From an uncultured virus (IMG/VR IMGVR_UViG_2706795104_000001) (lineage: Duplodnaviria > Heunggongvirae > Uroviricota > Caudoviricetes > Herelleviridae): DNA of 64,000 bases. Of this stretch, positions 1-5,139 are shown in pieces (positions within the stretch are counted from its first letter, which is position 1; the number at the start of each line of letters is the position of its first letter). The stretch is taken from IMG/VR virus record IMGVR_UViG_2706795104_000001, positions 32,001 to 96,000 of that record. One strand, given 5' to 3'. The notes under the pieces are model-generated. The model was given only the letters and a program-made list of their open reading frames with translations, was not told the DNA's origin and made no database searches. The position numbers were made by a program, and so were the translations under genes.

Positions 1-6
1 AGTTTC

Positions 7-80
7 CAGTGTGTGGTGAAGTGGCTTAACACGGACGACTGTGGATCGTTCATTCGCAGGTTCGAATCCTGTCATGCTGA
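7..80 (+). tRNA. tRNA-His(GTG), atypical (no G-1/C73, no encoded CCA)
   Basis: Acceptor CAGTGTG/CATGCTG; anticodon arm GACGA-CTGTGGA-TCGTT; T arm GCAGG-TTCGAAT-CCTGT. Confidence 0.85.
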
Positions 81-176
81 TACTTCAATTGATTCCTCCT
101 ACAGGGATGCGTCCTGAGTAGGTTAAAACTTTTAGGTGCTGAAGTCACTGGGTTATAGGTACCTAGCTCTTATTAC

Positions 177-249
177 GTGGATATAGGCTAGTTGGTCAGT
201 CACTCCGTTTGGGGCGGAGGTCACGCAGGTTCGACTCCTGCTATCCGCA
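177..249 (+). tRNA. tRNA-Pro(TGG), no encoded CCA
   Basis: Acceptor GTGGATA/TATCCGC; anticodon arm CTCCG-TTTGGGG-CGGAG; T arm GCAGG-TTCGACT-CCTGC. Confidence 0.9.
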
Positions 250-350
250 TTTTGTTTATGTTTAGGTTTTTCACGTAGGGTGTTCATCATTAGGAGAAAT
301 ATAATTTGGGGGATGAACGTTTGATATGGGCTGGCAACCTTACACAATAT

Positions 351-425
351 GGATAGATAGCTGAGATGGATTAGCGAGTGGTTGAAACCCACTAGAGGTT
401 GGATCGTTACCAACTCTGTCCACCA
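351..425 (+). tRNA. tRNA-Phe(GAA) with non-canonical T loop
   Basis: Acceptor GGATAGA/TCTGTCC then ACCA; anticodon arm AGTGG-TTGAAAC-CCACT; T arm GTTGG-ATCGTTA-CCAAC. Confidence 0.88.
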
Positions 426-431
426 AAATAT

Positions 432-514
432 GGGCGTGCAATCATTGGAGAGATAAGCTGACTGTAAATCAGTGGTCATTGACTGTGAAGGTTCGAATCC
501 TTCCATTCCCACCA
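432..514 (+). tRNA. tRNA-Tyr(GTA)
   Basis: Anticodon arm CTGA-CTGTAAA-TCAG; long variable arm; GAAGG-TTCGAAT-CCTTC; ends ACCA; one C.U mismatch in the acceptor stem. Confidence 0.88.
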
Positions 515-515
515 T

Positions 516-602
516 ATCGGAATGTTGGAATTGGTAGACATAACGGACTTAAAATCCGTTGCTCCTTGGGGCGTGAGGGTTCGAGTCCCTCTTCCGATAC
601 CA
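516..602 (+). tRNA. tRNA-Leu(TAA)
   Basis: Acceptor ATCGGAA/TTCCGAT then ACCA; ACGGA-CTTAAAA-TCCGT; long variable arm; GAGGG-TTCGAGT-CCCTC. Confidence 0.93.
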
Positions 603-603
603 T

Positions 604-678
604 ACTAGTGTAGCTCAGAGGTAGAGCAGTGTCTTGATAAGGCATTGGTCGTTGGTTCAATCCCAACCACTAGTACCA
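604..678 (+). tRNA. tRNA-Ile(GAT)
   Basis: Acceptor ACTAGTG/CACTAGT then ACCA; GTGTC-TTGATAA-GGCAT; GTTGG-TTCAATC-CCAAC. Confidence 0.93.
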
Positions 679-686
679 TTTAATAT

Positions 687-768
687 GTCGGAGTGTTGGA
701 ACTGGTATACATGCGGCACTTAGAATGCCGTGCCTTCGGGATTGAGGGTTCGACTCCCTCCTTCGACA
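687..768 (+). tRNA. tRNA-Leu(TAG), followed by TCA rather than CCA
   Basis: Acceptor GTCGGAG/CTTCGAC; CGGCA-CTTAGAA-TGCCG; GAGGG-TTCGACT-CCCTC. Confidence 0.92.
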
Positions 769-774
769 TCAAAT

Positions 775-826
775 GCAGAGTGCAATTAACGATTGTCTAT
801 GAGGTCGTTCCTCACATTCTGCTCCA
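775..826 (+). ncRNA. 52-nt tRNA-like mini RNA (acceptor stem, two hairpins, CCA end)
   Basis: GCAGAGTG/CATTCTGC 8-bp stem followed by TCCA; internal hairpins CAAT-TAACG-ATTG and TGAGG-TCGTT-CCTCA; spaced like the flanking tRNA genes. Confidence 0.6.
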
Positions 827-832
827 TATTAT

Positions 833-916
833 GGGGGAGAGAAACTTAAAGGCAAGAGGTAAGCCAGTGGTCTCCAAAACCACCGTTAAGAGGTTCGATT
901 CCTCCCTCCCCTGCCA
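833..916 (+). tRNA. tRNA-Trp(CCA) with extended acceptor-to-D-arm linker
   Basis: GTGGT-CTCCAAA-ACCAC; GAGG-TTCGATT-CCTC; acceptor GGGGGAG/CTCCCCT then GCCA; 11-nt linker at 840-850 instead of the usual 2 nt. Confidence 0.8.
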
Positions 917-921
917 AATAT

Positions 922-993
922 ACGGTTATAGCTCAGTGGTAGAGTGTGGGTCTCATAAGCCCAAGGTCGATGGTTCAATCCCATCTAACCGTA
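922..993 (+). tRNA. tRNA-Met(CAT) (Met versus Ile2 not resolved), no encoded CCA
   Basis: Acceptor ACGGTTA/TAACCGT; TGGGT-CTCATAA-GCCCA; GATGG-TTCAATC-CCATC. Confidence 0.9.
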
Positions 994-1039
994 TCGCTTT
1001 AGTGTGTTTAAAATTGATAATTTAATAGGGGGAATTGAA

Positions 1040-1669
1040 ATGGAAAAGATGTCAGTTCAACGTGGTTTAATGGAGTTAAAAACTTTAGGTAATCGTATCA
1101 CTCGTGCCACTCAACAACCTTTCGTATCTTTCTACGTAGGTGATAAGGGTGCTCCACAAGGATTCAAGACACCTGAAGAGTTCTCCGCATACGCTCAAGG
1201 TCGTTATGACTCTGCTACGGACTTAATTAAGCGCAGAAACGCAATTAAAGCTGCGATTATCCAGTCTAATGCAGTAACTAAGGTTACTGTAGCAGGAAAG
1301 TCAATGACAGTTGCAGAAGCAATTGACCGTAAGGACTCAATTGTTCACGAGAAAGTTCTCTTACAACAACTGCAATCGCAGTTCAGTGAGATTACTAGAC
1401 GTGTAGTTTCTCAACAACAAGTGTTAGACGCTCGAATTGATAAGGTTTTAGAAGAGGAAGGTGGCAAAGACCGTAAGGTTGATGACGCTGACCACGCTCG
1501 CATTGTAAAAAATGCAGAGTCTCGCTACAAACCAAATCTAGTTGATCCTATCGGTATCCGTAAAGTGATTGAACAGATGGAAGAAGACATTAGCTCATTC
1601 GAGTTAGATGTTGATGCTTCATTATCTGAAATCAACGCTCGTACGGACATCGAGTTCGAAGTGAAATAG
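1040..1669 (+). CDS. Helical protein resembling the DIP1984/septicolysin-like family
   Basis: SD AGGGGG before ATG 1040; internal two-fold repeat (MSVQRGLMELKTL...SNAVT and MTVAEAIDRKDSI...EINART); family assignment is from recall. Confidence 0.75.
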   Translation: MEKMSVQRGLMELKTLGNRITRATQQPFVSFYVGDKGAPQGFKTPEEFSAYAQGRYDSATDLIKRRNAIKAAIIQSNAVTKVTVAGKSMTVAEAIDRKDSIVHEKVLLQQLQSQFSEITRRVVSQQQVLDARIDKVLEEEGGKDRKVDDADHARIVKNAESRYKPNLVDPIGIRKVIEQMEEDISSFELDVDASLSEINARTDIEFEVK

Positions 1670-1703
1670 TAGGTTGACTCCCTCTCTTTGAGAGGGACAA
1701 GCC

Positions 1704-2057
1704 TTTGCTGACACACCGACACTTACCAACCAAATGCGTCCCTTACTAACGATATAGTGAGAAGATACTTTTGACAAATTCGTCAAAACTAAGCGATAGC
1801 CAAAATGGGGCTAATACATATATGGTACCTTCAGTGGAAGGAACAGGTGTAAGAAGCTCAAAGCTAATTGTTCAAAGGTTGACAAGTTAAAAGTTCTTAT
1901 GCGTTCAAAGGTAATAGTTGTACAGGTCAAAGAGGGCAAGATGAGTCTCCATGAATGAGAGACTAGCTCGTAAAGGTCGATAAAATCCACTGTAAAAAGG
2001 TTTGCGAGAGTTCATTTGTGGTCTCCGTAGGTGCCTGGTGGCTGGTGTGGTGGCAAA
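1704..2057 (+). ncRNA. Putative ~350-nt structured ncRNA with ~7-nt repeats and a possible pseudoknot
   Basis: Closing stem 1704-1718 with 2043-2057; several internal hairpins; CAGTGGA (1832) pairs with TCCACTG (1986); AAGNTNA-like repeats at 1854-1937; terminator follows. Confidence 0.75.
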
Positions 2058-2064
2058 TAGATGT

Positions 2065-2091
2065 AAGAGACCCTTCGGGGTCTTTTTTTTT
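2065..2091 (+). terminator. Intrinsic terminator
   Basis: AAGAGACCC-TTCG-GGGTCTT plus U tract. Confidence 0.95.
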
Positions 2092-2147
2092 CGTGTGTAG
2101 AAGTCCTATATTACATTGGTAAGACCAAATGTGAAAGGTGGGACTCT

Positions 2148-2987
2148 ATGTTACAAGTTAAATCATTTAGTGGAGCAACACACGCAGAACAGATTCAAAA
2201 TGCAATCAATGCCGCAAGTGTAAGCACAACAGACAAAACTGTACAACTAGAAGAGTTTAAAGACTACTACATCACTGCACCTATCATCGTTAAGAAGAAT
2301 GTTGAGTTACTGTTTGGTTACGGGACAAAGCTAGTTGTAGGTGGGAACGTACGTGTACTGGAACTAGAGACGAACGCATCCGTAACAAATCCGTACATCG
2401 CTATTGACGATCCGACATTCGATTCTGCGGTCTTCTACCTAGACGGTAAGAACAAGTTCTATAACACATGGAATAGAACATCTATTAAGAACGGTGTTAT
2501 TGTCAACTGGTCAGGTTCCTACAAAGGTGTGGGTATATCATGCTTCGCAGGTGGAACTGGTCACGAAGTATCATTCGTAAACTTCTTCGACATCAAGATT
2601 AGTGGTCTACGTAGAGGAATCGAATTAAGAGCAACAAAACCAACTACAGGTATGGCTTGGGTTAACGCAAACAGATTCAGAGACATCTCACTAGACGACT
2701 GCGTTGAAATGATTGTACTTGAATCATCTGAAACGATCCCAAATGAATGTAGTGGAAACATGTTCTTCGGACTTCAAATCCAACCTTCTGCTATGACAAC
2801 AACAGTACTACGAGTGAACGGGCAGCAGAACCGATTCGAGGGTATGCTTTGGGATACACACTTGATATCAACTCCTGGTGCATTCGTTCAATTTACGAAT
2901 ACAAGTTCATACAACAAGATAGATTTTAACGGATCGGTGCCGACTGCAAAAGTATCCGATGCAGGTGCATTCAATAAAGTACTTTAA
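2148..2987 (+). CDS. Pectate-lyase-like right-handed beta-helix protein (function unknown)
   Basis: N-terminal IQNAINAA...TVQL...YYITAPIIVKKNVELL pattern typical of pectate_lyase_3-like folds; TATATTA upstream. Confidence 0.6.
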   Translation: MLQVKSFSGATHAEQIQNAINAASVSTTDKTVQLEEFKDYYITAPIIVKKNVELLFGYGTKLVVGGNVRVLELETNASVTNPYIAIDDPTFDSAVFYLDGKNKFYNTWNRTSIKNGVIVNWSGSYKGVGISCFAGGTGHEVSFVNFFDIKISGLRRGIELRATKPTTGMAWVNANRFRDISLDDCVEMIVLESSETIPNECSGNMFFGLQIQPSAMTTTVLRVNGQQNRFEGMLWDTHLISTPGAFVQFTNTSSYNKIDFNGSVPTAKVSDAGAFNKVL

Positions 2988-3010
2988 GAACTCCTTAGTG
3001 AGTTCTTTTT
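2986..3010 (+). terminator. Intrinsic terminator
   Basis: AAGAACTC-CTTAGT-GAGTTCTT plus Ts. Confidence 0.85.
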
Positions 3011-3130
3011 CTTTTTGTAAAGGTCTCTAGCGAAGGTCGTATCTAACTACTGTGATATAATTAAGATACACGTTACGTACTTCGTATTTATCAAATTACG
3101 ACTATGTAGTCTTATATTATATCTAAGGGC

Positions 3131-3439
3131 GTGAGCTATGTGAGTTTATTCAGCAAAGACAATAAATGGAAGAAAGCGAAACAACTTCTGAACCATAACT
3201 ACACATGGTTAGAAGTCATTAGCTATTATAAGTCGCTAGGTGGTACCAATGTGTCCGTTTACTCTGTTATCGAAGGTGATAAACGGTTGATTGTAGATTT
3301 AACCGATGATGACCAAGTGCTTCTATTAAACAAGCATAACGAGTTAGTCAAGGATACTTATGATAACGTATTGAACAGTCGTAAAGTATTTGAGTACCAC
3401 GAAGACAACTCACGAAACCCCGTTGAATACAAAACATAA
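3131..3439 (+). CDS. Hypothetical protein upstream of portal
   Basis: 102-aa ORF, TATATTA at 3113, position directly before the portal gene. Confidence 0.75.
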   Translation: MSYVSLFSKDNKWKKAKQLLNHNYTWLEVISYYKSLGGTNVSVYSVIEGDKRLIVDLTDDDQVLLLNKHNELVKDTYDNVLNSRKVFEYHEDNSRNPVEYKT

Positions 3440-3465
3440 CTTGTAAATAAACTGAGGTGACATGG

Positions 3466-5139
3466 ATGAGTGTATTAGACTGGTTCAATCGTCAAGGTAG
3501 TGATACGCCACCTGAGAGTATCAGAAAAGTAGACGACAATTTTCTACTGGCTATCAAACACTTAGAAGATGAACAGATACAGAAAAGTAAATCAGGCGGC
3601 CAAGGTAGAGCCAAAGCATACGAGGAACCTCTTTTAGGTAGTATGTCGATGAACCCTGATTACAAAGAAGCTCCTTCTTCAAGAGGGAATCATAACTTAC
3701 TAGAGACATTGAAATTATGGTCTAGAAAGAACATTATTCTTAATGCAATTATTAATACTCGTGTAAACCAAGTATCATTATTCTGTACTCCTGCTAGACA
3801 TAGTGATAGGGGGATCGGATATGAGGTTCGTTTAAAGAACCCGTTAGACAAACCGACATCACATGATATTGCACGTATGGAACGTATTGAAGACTTCCTA
3901 CAGCATACAGGTAAGAGTCATGGTGACTTCACGAGAGACAACCTACGTTCGTTCGTAAAGAAACTCGTTCGAGACCGACTGGTATATGACAAGATTAACT
4001 TCGAACTTATCTATGATACAAAAGGTGAGCTAAACCGATTTAAAGCGGTCGATGCATCTACCATTTATGTAGCAGTAGACGAGAAAGGTCATGAACCAAA
4101 AGGAAAGAATGTTGCCAAGTACGTACAGATTTTAGAACGTAGAAAAGTAGCAGAATTTAAAGCAAACGAGATGGCTTGGGAGGTTCACAACCCGAGAACC
4201 GACATTACAGTTGGCCGCTATGGGTACTCTGAGTTAGAGGTAGCAATGAACCACTTACAGTACCACGAGAATACAGAGCTATTTAATGCTCGTTACTTTG
4301 CACAAGGTGGTACGACAAGAGGTCTATTACATATCAAGACTGGTCAAGACCAATCTAACCAAGCGTTACAGGCATTTAGACGTGAATGGACCGCAATGTT
4401 CAGCGGGATCAACGGGGCTTGGAAAATTCCTGTTATCTCTGCCGAAGATGTTAAGTTCGTTAACATGACGCAATCATCAAGAGATATGGAGTTCGAGAAG
4501 TGGTTGAACTACTTAATTAACGTATGTTGCTCTATCTACGCTATCGACCCATCGGAGATTAACTTCCCGAATAGAGGTGGAGCTACAGGTAGTAGTGGTA
4601 ACACTCTAAATGAAGGTAGCACAAAAGAGAAACATCGTAGCTCGAAAGATAAAGGGTTAGAGCCTTTACTAAAGTTCATCGAAGATGCAATTAATAAATA
4701 CATCGTAAGTCAATTCGGGGATCGCTACCTATTTAGTTTCGTTGGTGGAGACGTACAAACAGAACGTGAGATTATCGAAATCTTAGCAGCTAAGGCAGAG
4801 ATTGGTCTTACAATTAATGATGTACGTAATGAGTTAGGACTACCACCTATCGAAGGTGGAGACATCATCTTAAACGGTGTACACGTACAACGTCTAGGTC
4901 AGTTAATGCAAGAAGAGATGATGAAACAACAAATGGCTATGACACCTAATGGACAAGTCCCAGGTAACAAAACACAGACTCCGAAAGAAGAGAAGTCCCA
5001 AGCAGAACAAAAAGGGATGAACGGTAATTCGGATAACGTTAACGGGAAAGGTACCCACAACAAAGGGGTAGGCAAAGATGGTCAGGTGAAAGGTGCGAAG
5101 AACGCTAACTCAGGAAAACAGGGCGGTAAAGGTAAATAA
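3466..5139 (+). CDS. Portal protein
   Basis: RYGYSELE, FAQGGTTRGLL, WKIPV, DMEFEKWLNYLIN, IDPSEINFPNRGG motifs of Twort/SPO1-like portals; SD GAGGTG. Confidence 0.95.
   Translation: MSVLDWFNRQGSDTPPESIRKVDDNFLLAIKHLEDEQIQKSKSGGQGRAKAYEEPLLGSMSMNPDYKEAPSSRGNHNLLETLKLWSRKNIILNAIINTRVNQVSLFCTPARHSDRGIGYEVRLKNPLDKPTSHDIARMERIEDFLQHTGKSHGDFTRDNLRSFVKKLVRDRLVYDKINFELIYDTKGELNRFKAVDASTIYVAVDEKGHEPKGKNVAKYVQILERRKVAEFKANEMAWEVHNPRTDITVGRYGYSELEVAMNHLQYHENTELFNARYFAQGGTTRGLLHIKTGQDQSNQALQAFRREWTAMFSGINGAWKIPVISAEDVKFVNMTQSSRDMEFEKWLNYLINVCCSIYAIDPSEINFPNRGGATGSSGNTLNEGSTKEKHRSSKDKGLEPLLKFIEDAINKYIVSQFGDRYLFSFVGGDVQTEREIIEILAAKAEIGLTINDVRNELGLPPIEGGDIILNGVHVQRLGQLMQEEMMKQQMAMTPNGQVPGNKTQTPKEEKSQAEQKGMNGNSDNVNGKGTHNKGVGKDGQVKGAKNANSGKQGGKGK

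Follow-up and report, generated by a model that had tools for sequence, protein, structure and literature searches.

Introduction

TRAP on the trp leader and HutP on the hut mRNA of Bacillus are attenuation regulators that act on 5′ leaders. Both proteins form beta-rich rings, and in both systems an oligomer reads evenly spaced, short, purine-rich motifs within a single-stranded tract; the UAG motifs of HutP are spaced 7 nucleotides (nt) apart. In ToxIN, a type III toxin-antitoxin system, RNA repeats of ~36 nt lie upstream of the toxin gene, and the toxin is an endoribonuclease. GOLLD and ROOL are large structured RNAs, and we know of no obligate partner gene for either of them. According to the main text of PMC5737381, both are often found near tRNAs and in prophages. 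Here we describe a structured RNA, named heptad RNA after its array of 7-nt units, that lies directly downstream of the gene for a 209-amino-acid (aa) protein, its partner protein, in a 64,000-nt stretch (the window) of an uncultured virus of the Herelleviridae (IMG/VR record IMGVR_UViG_2706795104_000001; 152,778 bases). All coordinates are window positions and refer to the + strand unless stated.

The heptad RNA is like the targets of TRAP and HutP in its evenly spaced short motifs, with the same 7-nt step as in HutP, but the RNAs of those two systems have no knotted closing domain, the model of the partner protein is helical, and the comparison with RNA-binding rings is at most an analogy. 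Like ToxIN, it belongs to a small module, found in phages and bacteria, that combines a protein gene with an RNA carrying repeats. In contrast to ToxIN, the heptad RNA lies downstream of its gene, its units are 7 nt long, the protein model is helical and the protein has no PADLOC match. Like GOLLD and ROOL it is a structured RNA of considerable size found near tRNAs, although it is smaller than both and neither Rfam model matches it. We propose that the heptad RNA and the partner protein form a ribonucleoprotein, in which protomers of the protein would read the heptads to build a particle of fixed size that may hold or titrate a factor. We give this reading a probability of roughly 0.6.

Results

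The gap downstream of the partner gene specifies a knotted RNA

The 478 bases between the stop codon of the partner gene (1667-1669) and the ATG at 2148 contain no long open reading frame (ORF). In the ORF list, the frames on either strand are all short (32-59 aa) and overlap one another, as judged by length alone, in agreement with an earlier note on this DNA that saw no credible ORF after the stop. The same note described extensive pairing in this stretch, and both folding and comparison bore this out. For the + strand of 1670-2095 the folding energy is -130.6 kcal/mol, compared to -109.2 ± 5.2 kcal/mol for shuffled sequences (z -4.14; 0 of 100 shuffles as good), and the fold of the - strand of the same stretch is unremarkable (z -1.85).

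Covariation of helices P1 (12 pairs), P2 (7), P3 (6) and X/X′ (5) was analyzed in 21 diverse family members aligned with MAFFT, together with six slid controls and 500 shuffles. Standard pairs occupied 90.0% of the cells of the four helices, compared to 31-42% in the slid controls. Both sides changed in 27 of the 30 pairs, and none of the 500 shuffles reached any of five measures. The closing helix P1, which lies exactly where the earlier note had drawn it, was paired in 96% of cells and showed two-sided changes in 10 of its 12 pairs; across the family, there is hardly any variation in its inner pairs, C1717-G2044 and G1718-U2043. Every pair changed on both sides in P2 (7/7, with 78% of cells paired) and in P3 (6/6, with 87% paired). 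Among 14 gaps from Bacillus phages, the structure paired 94.2% of cells, compared to 33-45% when the 3′ partners were slid; P1 was preserved there by compensatory changes, and P2 and P3 each reached 100%.

The 3′ domain was examined in a broader set. The alignment of 41 diverse 3′ domains has 91 columns (84 model positions) and contains few gaps. In these sequences X/X′ was paired in 100% of cells, with two-sided changes in four of its five pairs and up to six pair types per position, and X and P5 taken together were paired in 91% of cells versus 27-46% in controls. P5, which is invariant among Bacillus phages, covaries over the 41 sequences, where pairs 36-55 and 38-53 occur as 5 and 6 pair types. 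Because the 3′ strands of P3 and P2 are located between X (on their 5′ side) and X′ (on their 3′ side), the X/X′ pairing forms a pseudoknot, and a second knot arises because the loop of P5 carries the 3′ strand of P3. Two pairings put forward in the earlier note gave way to these helices. For CAGTGGA (1832) with TCCACTG (1986) the 5′ partner is not conserved, and CCACU pairs with GGUGG (X/X′) instead; for CTTAC (1722) with GTAAG (1849), the ACUUAC of the 5′ strand pairs instead with GUAGGU to form P2. All in all, these results establish that 1704-2057 is a real structured, knotted non-coding RNA and not the product of chance. Across the family, the length of the RNA is about 250-410 nt.

The pairing data also bear on the idea that the gap works as DNA, as a set of iterons, an origin or a promoter array, or that it hides a small gene. 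Repeated short motifs would suit a DNA element, and a SigF-like promoter is annotated in the homologous gap of phage Bc431v3. However, compensatory changes preserve the helices, many helix pairs are G-U in the + strand only, and the - strand has the unremarkable fold mentioned above, whereas a hidden gene would have to be found among frames that are all ≤59 aa. We therefore consider such explanations extremely unlikely, and return to the RNA itself.

A common plan could be drawn from the gaps of phages T5, M5.1 and Cody and from 80 IMG/VR loci. The 5′ strand, which mostly ends in CGAAAAC, is followed by variable hairpins and by a UYAAAG-like tract; then come UUCGAUAAAAUCC or a variant of it and the 5-nt X, with its complement X′ some 45 nt downstream, and the RNA closes with CUG and the 3′ strand of P1. 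The positions of these elements in the window are listed in Table 1.

Local hairpins of the window RNA are conserved to different degrees. Those at 1742-1761 and 1769-1788, already recognized in the earlier note, were paired in 100% and 79% of cells in the 14 Bacillus-phage gaps, with changes on both sides, and the one at 1944-1964 was paired in 98% of cells with no two-sided changes. The hairpin proposed at 1797-1813 is weaker; it was paired in 76% of cells, but no two-sided change was seen and the alignment is locally poor. The hairpin at 1828-1841 exists, but it falls in a stretch rich in indels among close relatives and was left out of the pairing count. A further hairpin, claimed at 1672-1703, was found between the stop codon and P1 with its stem at 1679-1686/1690-1697; both arms carry changed letters in aligned relatives. 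The other families examined have no room for it, the median distance from stop codon to P1 being 9 nt.

Two candidate structures were discarded. Helix "P6" (GUUCUU at 1894-1899 with 1932-1937), which also appeared in RNAalifold, had a mean of 4.57 pairs in the 21 sequences versus 4.17 with shuffled partners. A single-sequence fold with P1-P3 enforced was not used, as heptads and 5′ domain pair with each other in it, at the cost of hairpins supported by covariation.

In three loci (L056, L093 and L066), the variable 5′ domain contains hairpins that resemble tRNA T-arms (GGTTCGAATCC-like), and L066 also contains a D-arm-like stretch. Such tRNA-like arms are absent from the window RNA.

Table 1. 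Features of the partner gene, the heptad RNA and their surroundings (window positions)
Feature	Position	Strand	Remarks
tRNA genes	7-995	+	eight genes; last tRNA ends at 995
Likely ribosome-binding site	1027-1033	+	AGGGGGA
Partner protein gene	1040-1669	+	209 aa, mostly helical; ATG at 1040
Lineage-specific hairpin between stop codon and RNA	stem 1679-1686/1690-1697	+	UCCCUCUC / GAGAGGGA; minimum free energy fold; no U run after it
Structured non-coding RNA	1704-2057	+	354 nt, from first to last base of closing helix P1
P1, 5′ strand	1704-1718	+	pairs with 2043-2057; 14 pairs and one mismatch
P2, 5′ strand	1721-1726	+	ACUUAC; pairs with GUAGGU 2027-2032
P3, 5′ strand	1729-1736	+	pairs with 2013-2016 and 2019-2022; 2-nt bulge 2017-2018
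Variable 5′ domain	1742-1841	+	four local hairpins: 1742-1748/1755-1761, 1769-1775/1782-1788, 1797-1801/1809-1813, 1828-1832/1837-1841
Heptad-like array	1850-1975	+	about 12-13 units, parsed by eye
Conserved 3′ domain	1973-2058	+	UCGAUAAAAUCC, X, P5, 3′ strands of P3 and P2, X′, CUG, 3′ strand of P1; covariance model R1
Pseudoknot strand X	1987-1991	+	CCACU; pairs with X′ GGUGG 2037-2041, crossing P2 and P3
P5 hairpin	2006-2025	+	GAG 2006-2008 with CUC 2023-2025; loop holds 3′ strand of P3
Intrinsic terminator	2065-2091	+	stem-loop 2065-2086, then T run; 9-bp stem, UUCG loop, U run; closes the unit; terminator scan
Tail-spike-like gene	2148-2987	+	ATG at 2148; followed by portal gene

About twelve 7-nt units are kept in register with the 3′ domain

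The tract of ~7-nt repeats reported in the earlier note proved to be real. When the spacing of A-rich motifs was determined in 59 distinct RNAs, 7 nt accounted for 21.5% of cases versus 2.7% in shuffled sequences, and 14 nt for 8.6% versus 2.3%. Alignment of the same 59 RNAs at the 3′ domain revealed twelve peaks of A frequency at steps of 7-8 nt, which then fade. Since the twelve peaks are in register, the number and phase of the units are conserved while their letters drift; in the Vibrio phage Cody, for example, the units read UUUAAGU. The composition of the tract is largely A/U/G. In the window, strong units are CUCAAAG (1857-1863), UUCAAAG (1871-1877), UUAAAAG (1887-1893), UUCAAAG (1904-1910), GUCAAAG (1926-1932) and CGUAAAG (1969-1975). 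The array is broken here by a hairpin (1944-1949/1959-1964) that is absent from the other families compared.

The RNA is obligatorily linked to the partner gene

Distribution of the RNA was followed with R1, a covariance model of the 3′ domain built from 41 seed sequences, the window included. R1 matches the window at 1973-2058 (+) with 54.6 bits (E 4.5e-9), and this is its sole match both in the window and in the 152,778-base record. The match is partly by construction because the window is one of the 41 seeds, and many loci outside the seed also match. Before R1 was built, the RNA was recovered in 35 of 86 cases by a strict motif script and in 73 of 86 by a looser one; R1 recovers nearly all.

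Starting from the protein, an R1 match was detected downstream and on the same strand in 78 of 80 IMG/VR loci, all 78 on the + strand. As for the two misses, one contig ends inside the gene, and the second locus gives a weak match (E 0.0079) once the filters are off. In the reverse direction, from RNA to protein, a motif scan yielded 80 IMG/VR loci, of which R1 confirmed 24; the partner gene lay directly upstream in every one of these (24/24), with 228-481 nt from the end of the gene to the 3′ domain. For bacteria, assemblies with one genome per species were searched, and 181 stretches encoding a relative of the protein were obtained, a count limited by the search pattern. Among the best 80 of these 181, R1 matched downstream in 69, and all 70 matches fell on the + strand, that of the protein gene. 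The earlier note had named in advance a survey of homologous genes for a similar downstream structure and repeats, and the homologues carry both; its view of protein and RNA as one unit thus holds in phages and bacteria alike. These results demonstrate that the RNA is obligatorily linked to the partner gene in phages and in Bacillota chromosomes.

In one locus, from a Parabacteroides metagenome assembly (L257), two R1 matches stand in tandem after the partner gene, at 3838-3922 and 4200-4280 (+) of that locus, and may represent a duplicated 3′ domain or a second copy of the RNA.

Relatives of the partner protein are encoded in 737 of 50,697 phage records, which comprise T5 and its kin and phages of Salmonella, Klebsiella, Erwinia, Vibrio, Pseudomonas, Lactococcus and Clostridioides. 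In T5, in the Pseudomonas phage M5.1 and in Cody, a stretch of 360-590 nt with no annotation comes after the homologue, and each of the three gives an R1 match.

P1 begins soon after the stop codon, at a median distance of 9 nt, with ≤40 nt in 57 of 59 distinct cases (34 nt in the window). Because this median is so short, the protein gene and the RNA are almost certainly made from one transcript, which in this phage probably also carries the tRNA array. The terminator scan found no terminator-like site from the last tRNA to the ORF, as the earlier note had stated, nor from the ORF to the RNA, and the UUCG terminator that it had placed at the end of the unit was recovered at 2065-2086, followed by a T run. 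No promoter-like site on the + strand was seen by the promoter scan within 349-2148.

An RNA that abuts the stop codon, with the only terminator after it, might be a cis-acting 3′ untranslated region that stabilizes its own mRNA or feeds back on its translation, and not a separate RNA product. However, some 350 nt with a double pseudoknot and a dozen phased units far exceed the needs of known 3′ stabilizers, and the 3′ domain is of nearly constant length (84 model positions) in all 41 aligned sequences. For these reasons we hold a purely cis-acting role to be quite unlikely, and keep to a ribonucleoprotein made from this transcript.

The module stands alone in bacterial chromosomes

In Bacillus safensis, the gene-RNA pair lies between genes for an amino-acid permease and a subtilase, and in a Lysinibacillus between genes for an MFS transporter and an RNA methyltransferase. 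The pair is collinear across seven species of the Bacillus pumilus group and several Lysinibacillus species. Of 80 viral loci, 46 have a tRNA gene no more than 1.5 kb away, whereas a range of 3 kb takes in a tRNA gene at only 6 of 80 bacterial loci. Since tRNA adjacency is common in viral loci and rare in bacterial ones, the module stands alone and its link with tRNAs is a habit of phages. The suggestion of the earlier note that it might be a tRNA-related device is not supported by this distribution.

Two loci that carry the heptad RNA also contain an Rfam FuFi-1 RNA (RF02986), at 1155-1327 (-) of L092 with 68.2 bits and at 1154-1326 (-) of L067 with 66.7 bits. In both, FuFi-1 is found ~170 nt ahead of the partner gene and on the other strand.

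Only the first 86 nt of some sister RNAs correspond to a catalogued family

Apart from tRNAs, Rfam gave no match to the window RNA at E up to 1 over 1-4000 or at E up to 10 over 1665-2100, and in 12 further loci it returned tRNAs only. By contrast, in three of 20 sister loci (L085, L067 and L077), the RNA passes the gathering score (76.1) of RAGATH-27 (RF03100), an orphan candidate small RNA. In these three loci the first 84-86 nt of the RNA, located behind the same partner gene, score 78.5-88 bits; the RAGATH-27 consensus starts within the 5′ strand of P1 and includes the CGAAAAC motif. The two descriptions differ in that the RAGATH-27 model has 86 positions with a single 7-bp hairpin, and contains no heptad array, 3′ domain or pseudoknot. 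It also writes the first 46 positions as unpaired, whereas here they form P1-P3 with partners more than 200 nt downstream. RAGATH-27 does not match the window RNA even at E up to 10, and no match was found in the 12 further loci. The statement of the earlier note that the RNA belongs to no named family is therefore accurate for the window RNA, but not for the first 86 nt of these sister RNAs.

In our literature search neither the full RNA nor the RNA-protein pair was found described, the supplements of two survey papers being outside it. The name RAGATH-27 was not found in that search, and "RAGATH" does not occur in the main text of PMC5737381, whose supplement was outside the search. Likewise, PMC10690425 presents 10,006 candidate viral RNAs and makes no mention of the heptad RNA in its main text, its supplement again being outside the search.

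The partner protein is predicted to be mostly helical

The partner protein matches PHROG 1491 over residues 1-207 (E 1.7e-81), and 1177 protein clusters are related to it. PHROG 1491 bears the label "tail fiber protein", which is also found on many phage records. This label is doubtful because the genes are located in tRNA arrays or early regions away from tail genes (T5, M5.1 and Cody) and near housekeeping genes in bacteria, and it is probably wrong. No Pfam, NCBIfam or PADLOC family scored above threshold for the protein or for 35 aligned relatives; the PADLOC search returned single chance-level rows only.

An AlphaFold2 model computed with 35 sequences (pLDDT 86.4, pTM 0.77) has five helices (residues 6-24, 45-75, 91-141, 149-163 and 173-199) and small strands, with a small hairpin at residues 81-90. 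The best conserved block spans residues 61-100, and the segment 61-90 within it has a net charge of +5.

The earlier note had called the protein DIP1984-like, and our searches point faintly to a distant likeness to DIP1984/DUF6847 (NF038048, PF20935) rather than membership. Seven of 35 family members match each of the two models below threshold (best E 0.0008 and 0.005), and the family profile matches PDB 3kdq with E 0.023 over the conserved SNAxT...MTVAEAI block. When the model was searched with Foldseek, 3kdq ranked third (E 0.18, TM-score 0.26/0.35), and it was not among the VIA-align matches listed. In the Protein Atlas the partner protein falls only among unnamed clusters, and the nearest named cluster (score 0.88) has PF20935 in 16% of its members. 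On the other hand, the partner protein itself matches neither model and is ~50 aa longer, and two true DUF6847 genes (G003 and G005; n=2 only) have no R1 match downstream.

The protein searches are also relevant to a toxin-antitoxin-like module, as contemplated in the earlier note along with an anti-defence role. Under this explanation the free protein would be harmful and the repeat RNA would keep it inactive, with a resemblance to type III systems in logic only. A protein gene and a repeat RNA on one transcript, carried by phages and scattered over bacterial chromosomes, would be in keeping with it, and the weak Foldseek rows include the alpha-pore-forming toxins AhlC, AhlB, XaxAB and MakE. 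Those rows, however, are at chance level (E 0.4-1.7). Compared with ToxIN, the order of gene and RNA is reversed and the units are of 7 nt, not ~36 nt; moreover, the helical model is not an endoribonuclease fold and PADLOC found no match. In addition, the bacterial copies examined are syntenic, being stable in the seven B. pumilus-group species, and sit among housekeeping genes. Altogether, a toxin-antitoxin function has a low probability in our view, an anti-defence role finds no support in these searches, and a ribonucleoprotein with another role is preferred.

Genomic surroundings of the locus

The nearest named relatives of the window are myophages of the Bacillus cereus group, genus Caeruleovirus (Herelleviridae, Bastillevirinae); across 1000-2150 it shares 92-93% identity with Hobo, BM15, Bc431v3 and JBP901. 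The gap after the partner gene is kept in 28 phage records, with identity down to 70% in the genus Tsarbombavirus, and it is without annotated genes in these records, except that of phage BC-VP, which lists two hypothetical proteins there.

Within the tRNA array, between tRNA-Leu and tRNA-Met, 850-905 (+) gives a partial match to the Rfam tRNA model (29.5 bits, model positions 9-63). ARAGORN makes no tRNA call at this site, and its equivalent in Bc431v3 is annotated "tRNA-Trp, possible pseudogene". On the other side of the locus, just before the portal gene, a 102-aa ORF (3131-3439, +) matches PHROG 1108 ("portal protein", E 8.6e-39). Its counterpart in Bc431v3 is annotated as similar to gp82 of Listeria phage A511, and the ORF is probably a small conserved gene of the head module rather than a portal gene.

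A relative ~91% alike to 1000-2150, with differing letters and gaps counted by hand, was present in soil metatranscriptome libraries deposited under many study codes; in three of these libraries, contigs of 2.9-6.8 kb cover the stretch from end to end. Assembled contigs reveal neither the ends nor the strand or level of a transcript, and carried-over DNA is possible, so we draw no inference from them.

Discussion

The architecture of the heptad RNA suggests how it might work with its partner. Transcribed as a 3′ extension of the mRNA for the 209-aa protein, the RNA brings its 5′ and 3′ ends together through P1, P2 and P3, and X/X′ and P5 lock the constant 84-nt 3′ domain. Between the end domains, about twelve 7-nt UYAAAG-like units stand in fixed register to the 3′ domain. 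Each copy of the protein would read one heptad through the conserved basic segment around residues 61-90, in the manner in which TRAP or HutP reads phased triplets. With its ends joined by the end domains, the array is a closed loop with a fixed number of units, so that about a dozen protomers would assemble into a particle of fixed size and not into an open filament. Our leading guess is that such a particle holds or titrates either the protein itself or a host RNA-binding factor, both during infection and in the cell.

Several observations weigh against a ribonucleoprotein of this kind. Fold searches with the model of the protein retrieved generic helical bundles only (VIA-align Z up to 8.6; Foldseek E 0.13 or worse), and no match marks the partner protein as an RNA binder. 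As a whole the protein is slightly acidic (isoelectric point 5.86; family median 5.63), and its last 29 residues carry a net charge of -8. The heptads are degenerate, only about 6 of 13 being strong in the window. In 11 of the 80 bacterial loci R1 found no match at E up to 0.01, so that the RNA there is divergent or absent. Finally, gene and RNA could be linked for no other reason than that the RNA is made from this mRNA and depends on it.

This last point leads to the alternative that the RNA acts alone, as a self-assembling RNA or a scaffold in the way of the large tRNA-adjacent phage RNAs, and that the upstream gene provides only a promoter and transcript or a transient chaperone. The rich knotted fold and the 3′ domain of constant length would be expected of such an RNA, as would a protein with no recognizable RNA-binding fold, and the proximity to tRNAs in 46/80 viral loci recalls GOLLD and ROOL as they are described in the main text of PMC5737381. 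Nevertheless, the near-absolute coupling to one protein family across diverse phages and chromosomes exceeds what a shared promoter would need, and an A/U/G tract of phased 7-nt units resembles a binding array and not a folded core. We consider it unlikely that the RNA functions without the protein, and favour a particle in which the protein occupies the heptads.

Going one step further, we tentatively suggest, at somewhat less than even odds, that the module represents a novel class of ribonucleoprotein, present in Bacillota cells and in large lytic phages from T5 to the Bacillus myophages. In it, a knotted RNA clasp would close a ruler of twelve heptads into a loop that counts about a dozen helical protomers, giving a particle of fixed size. 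Phages would express this particle along with their tRNAs and use it during infection to hold or titrate some activity that handles RNA.

Large structured RNAs of bacteria and phages with conserved knotted folds are few, and those whose roles have been solved proved to be fundamental or unexpected. The module described here is widespread, as shown by the 1177 protein clusters and the 737 phage records, T5 included, and yet it had been catalogued only as an 86-nt orphan piece of one subgroup. Besides correcting what is probably a mislabel, "tail fiber protein", on many phage records, its strict pairing with one small protein offers a direct experimental handle on the RNA.

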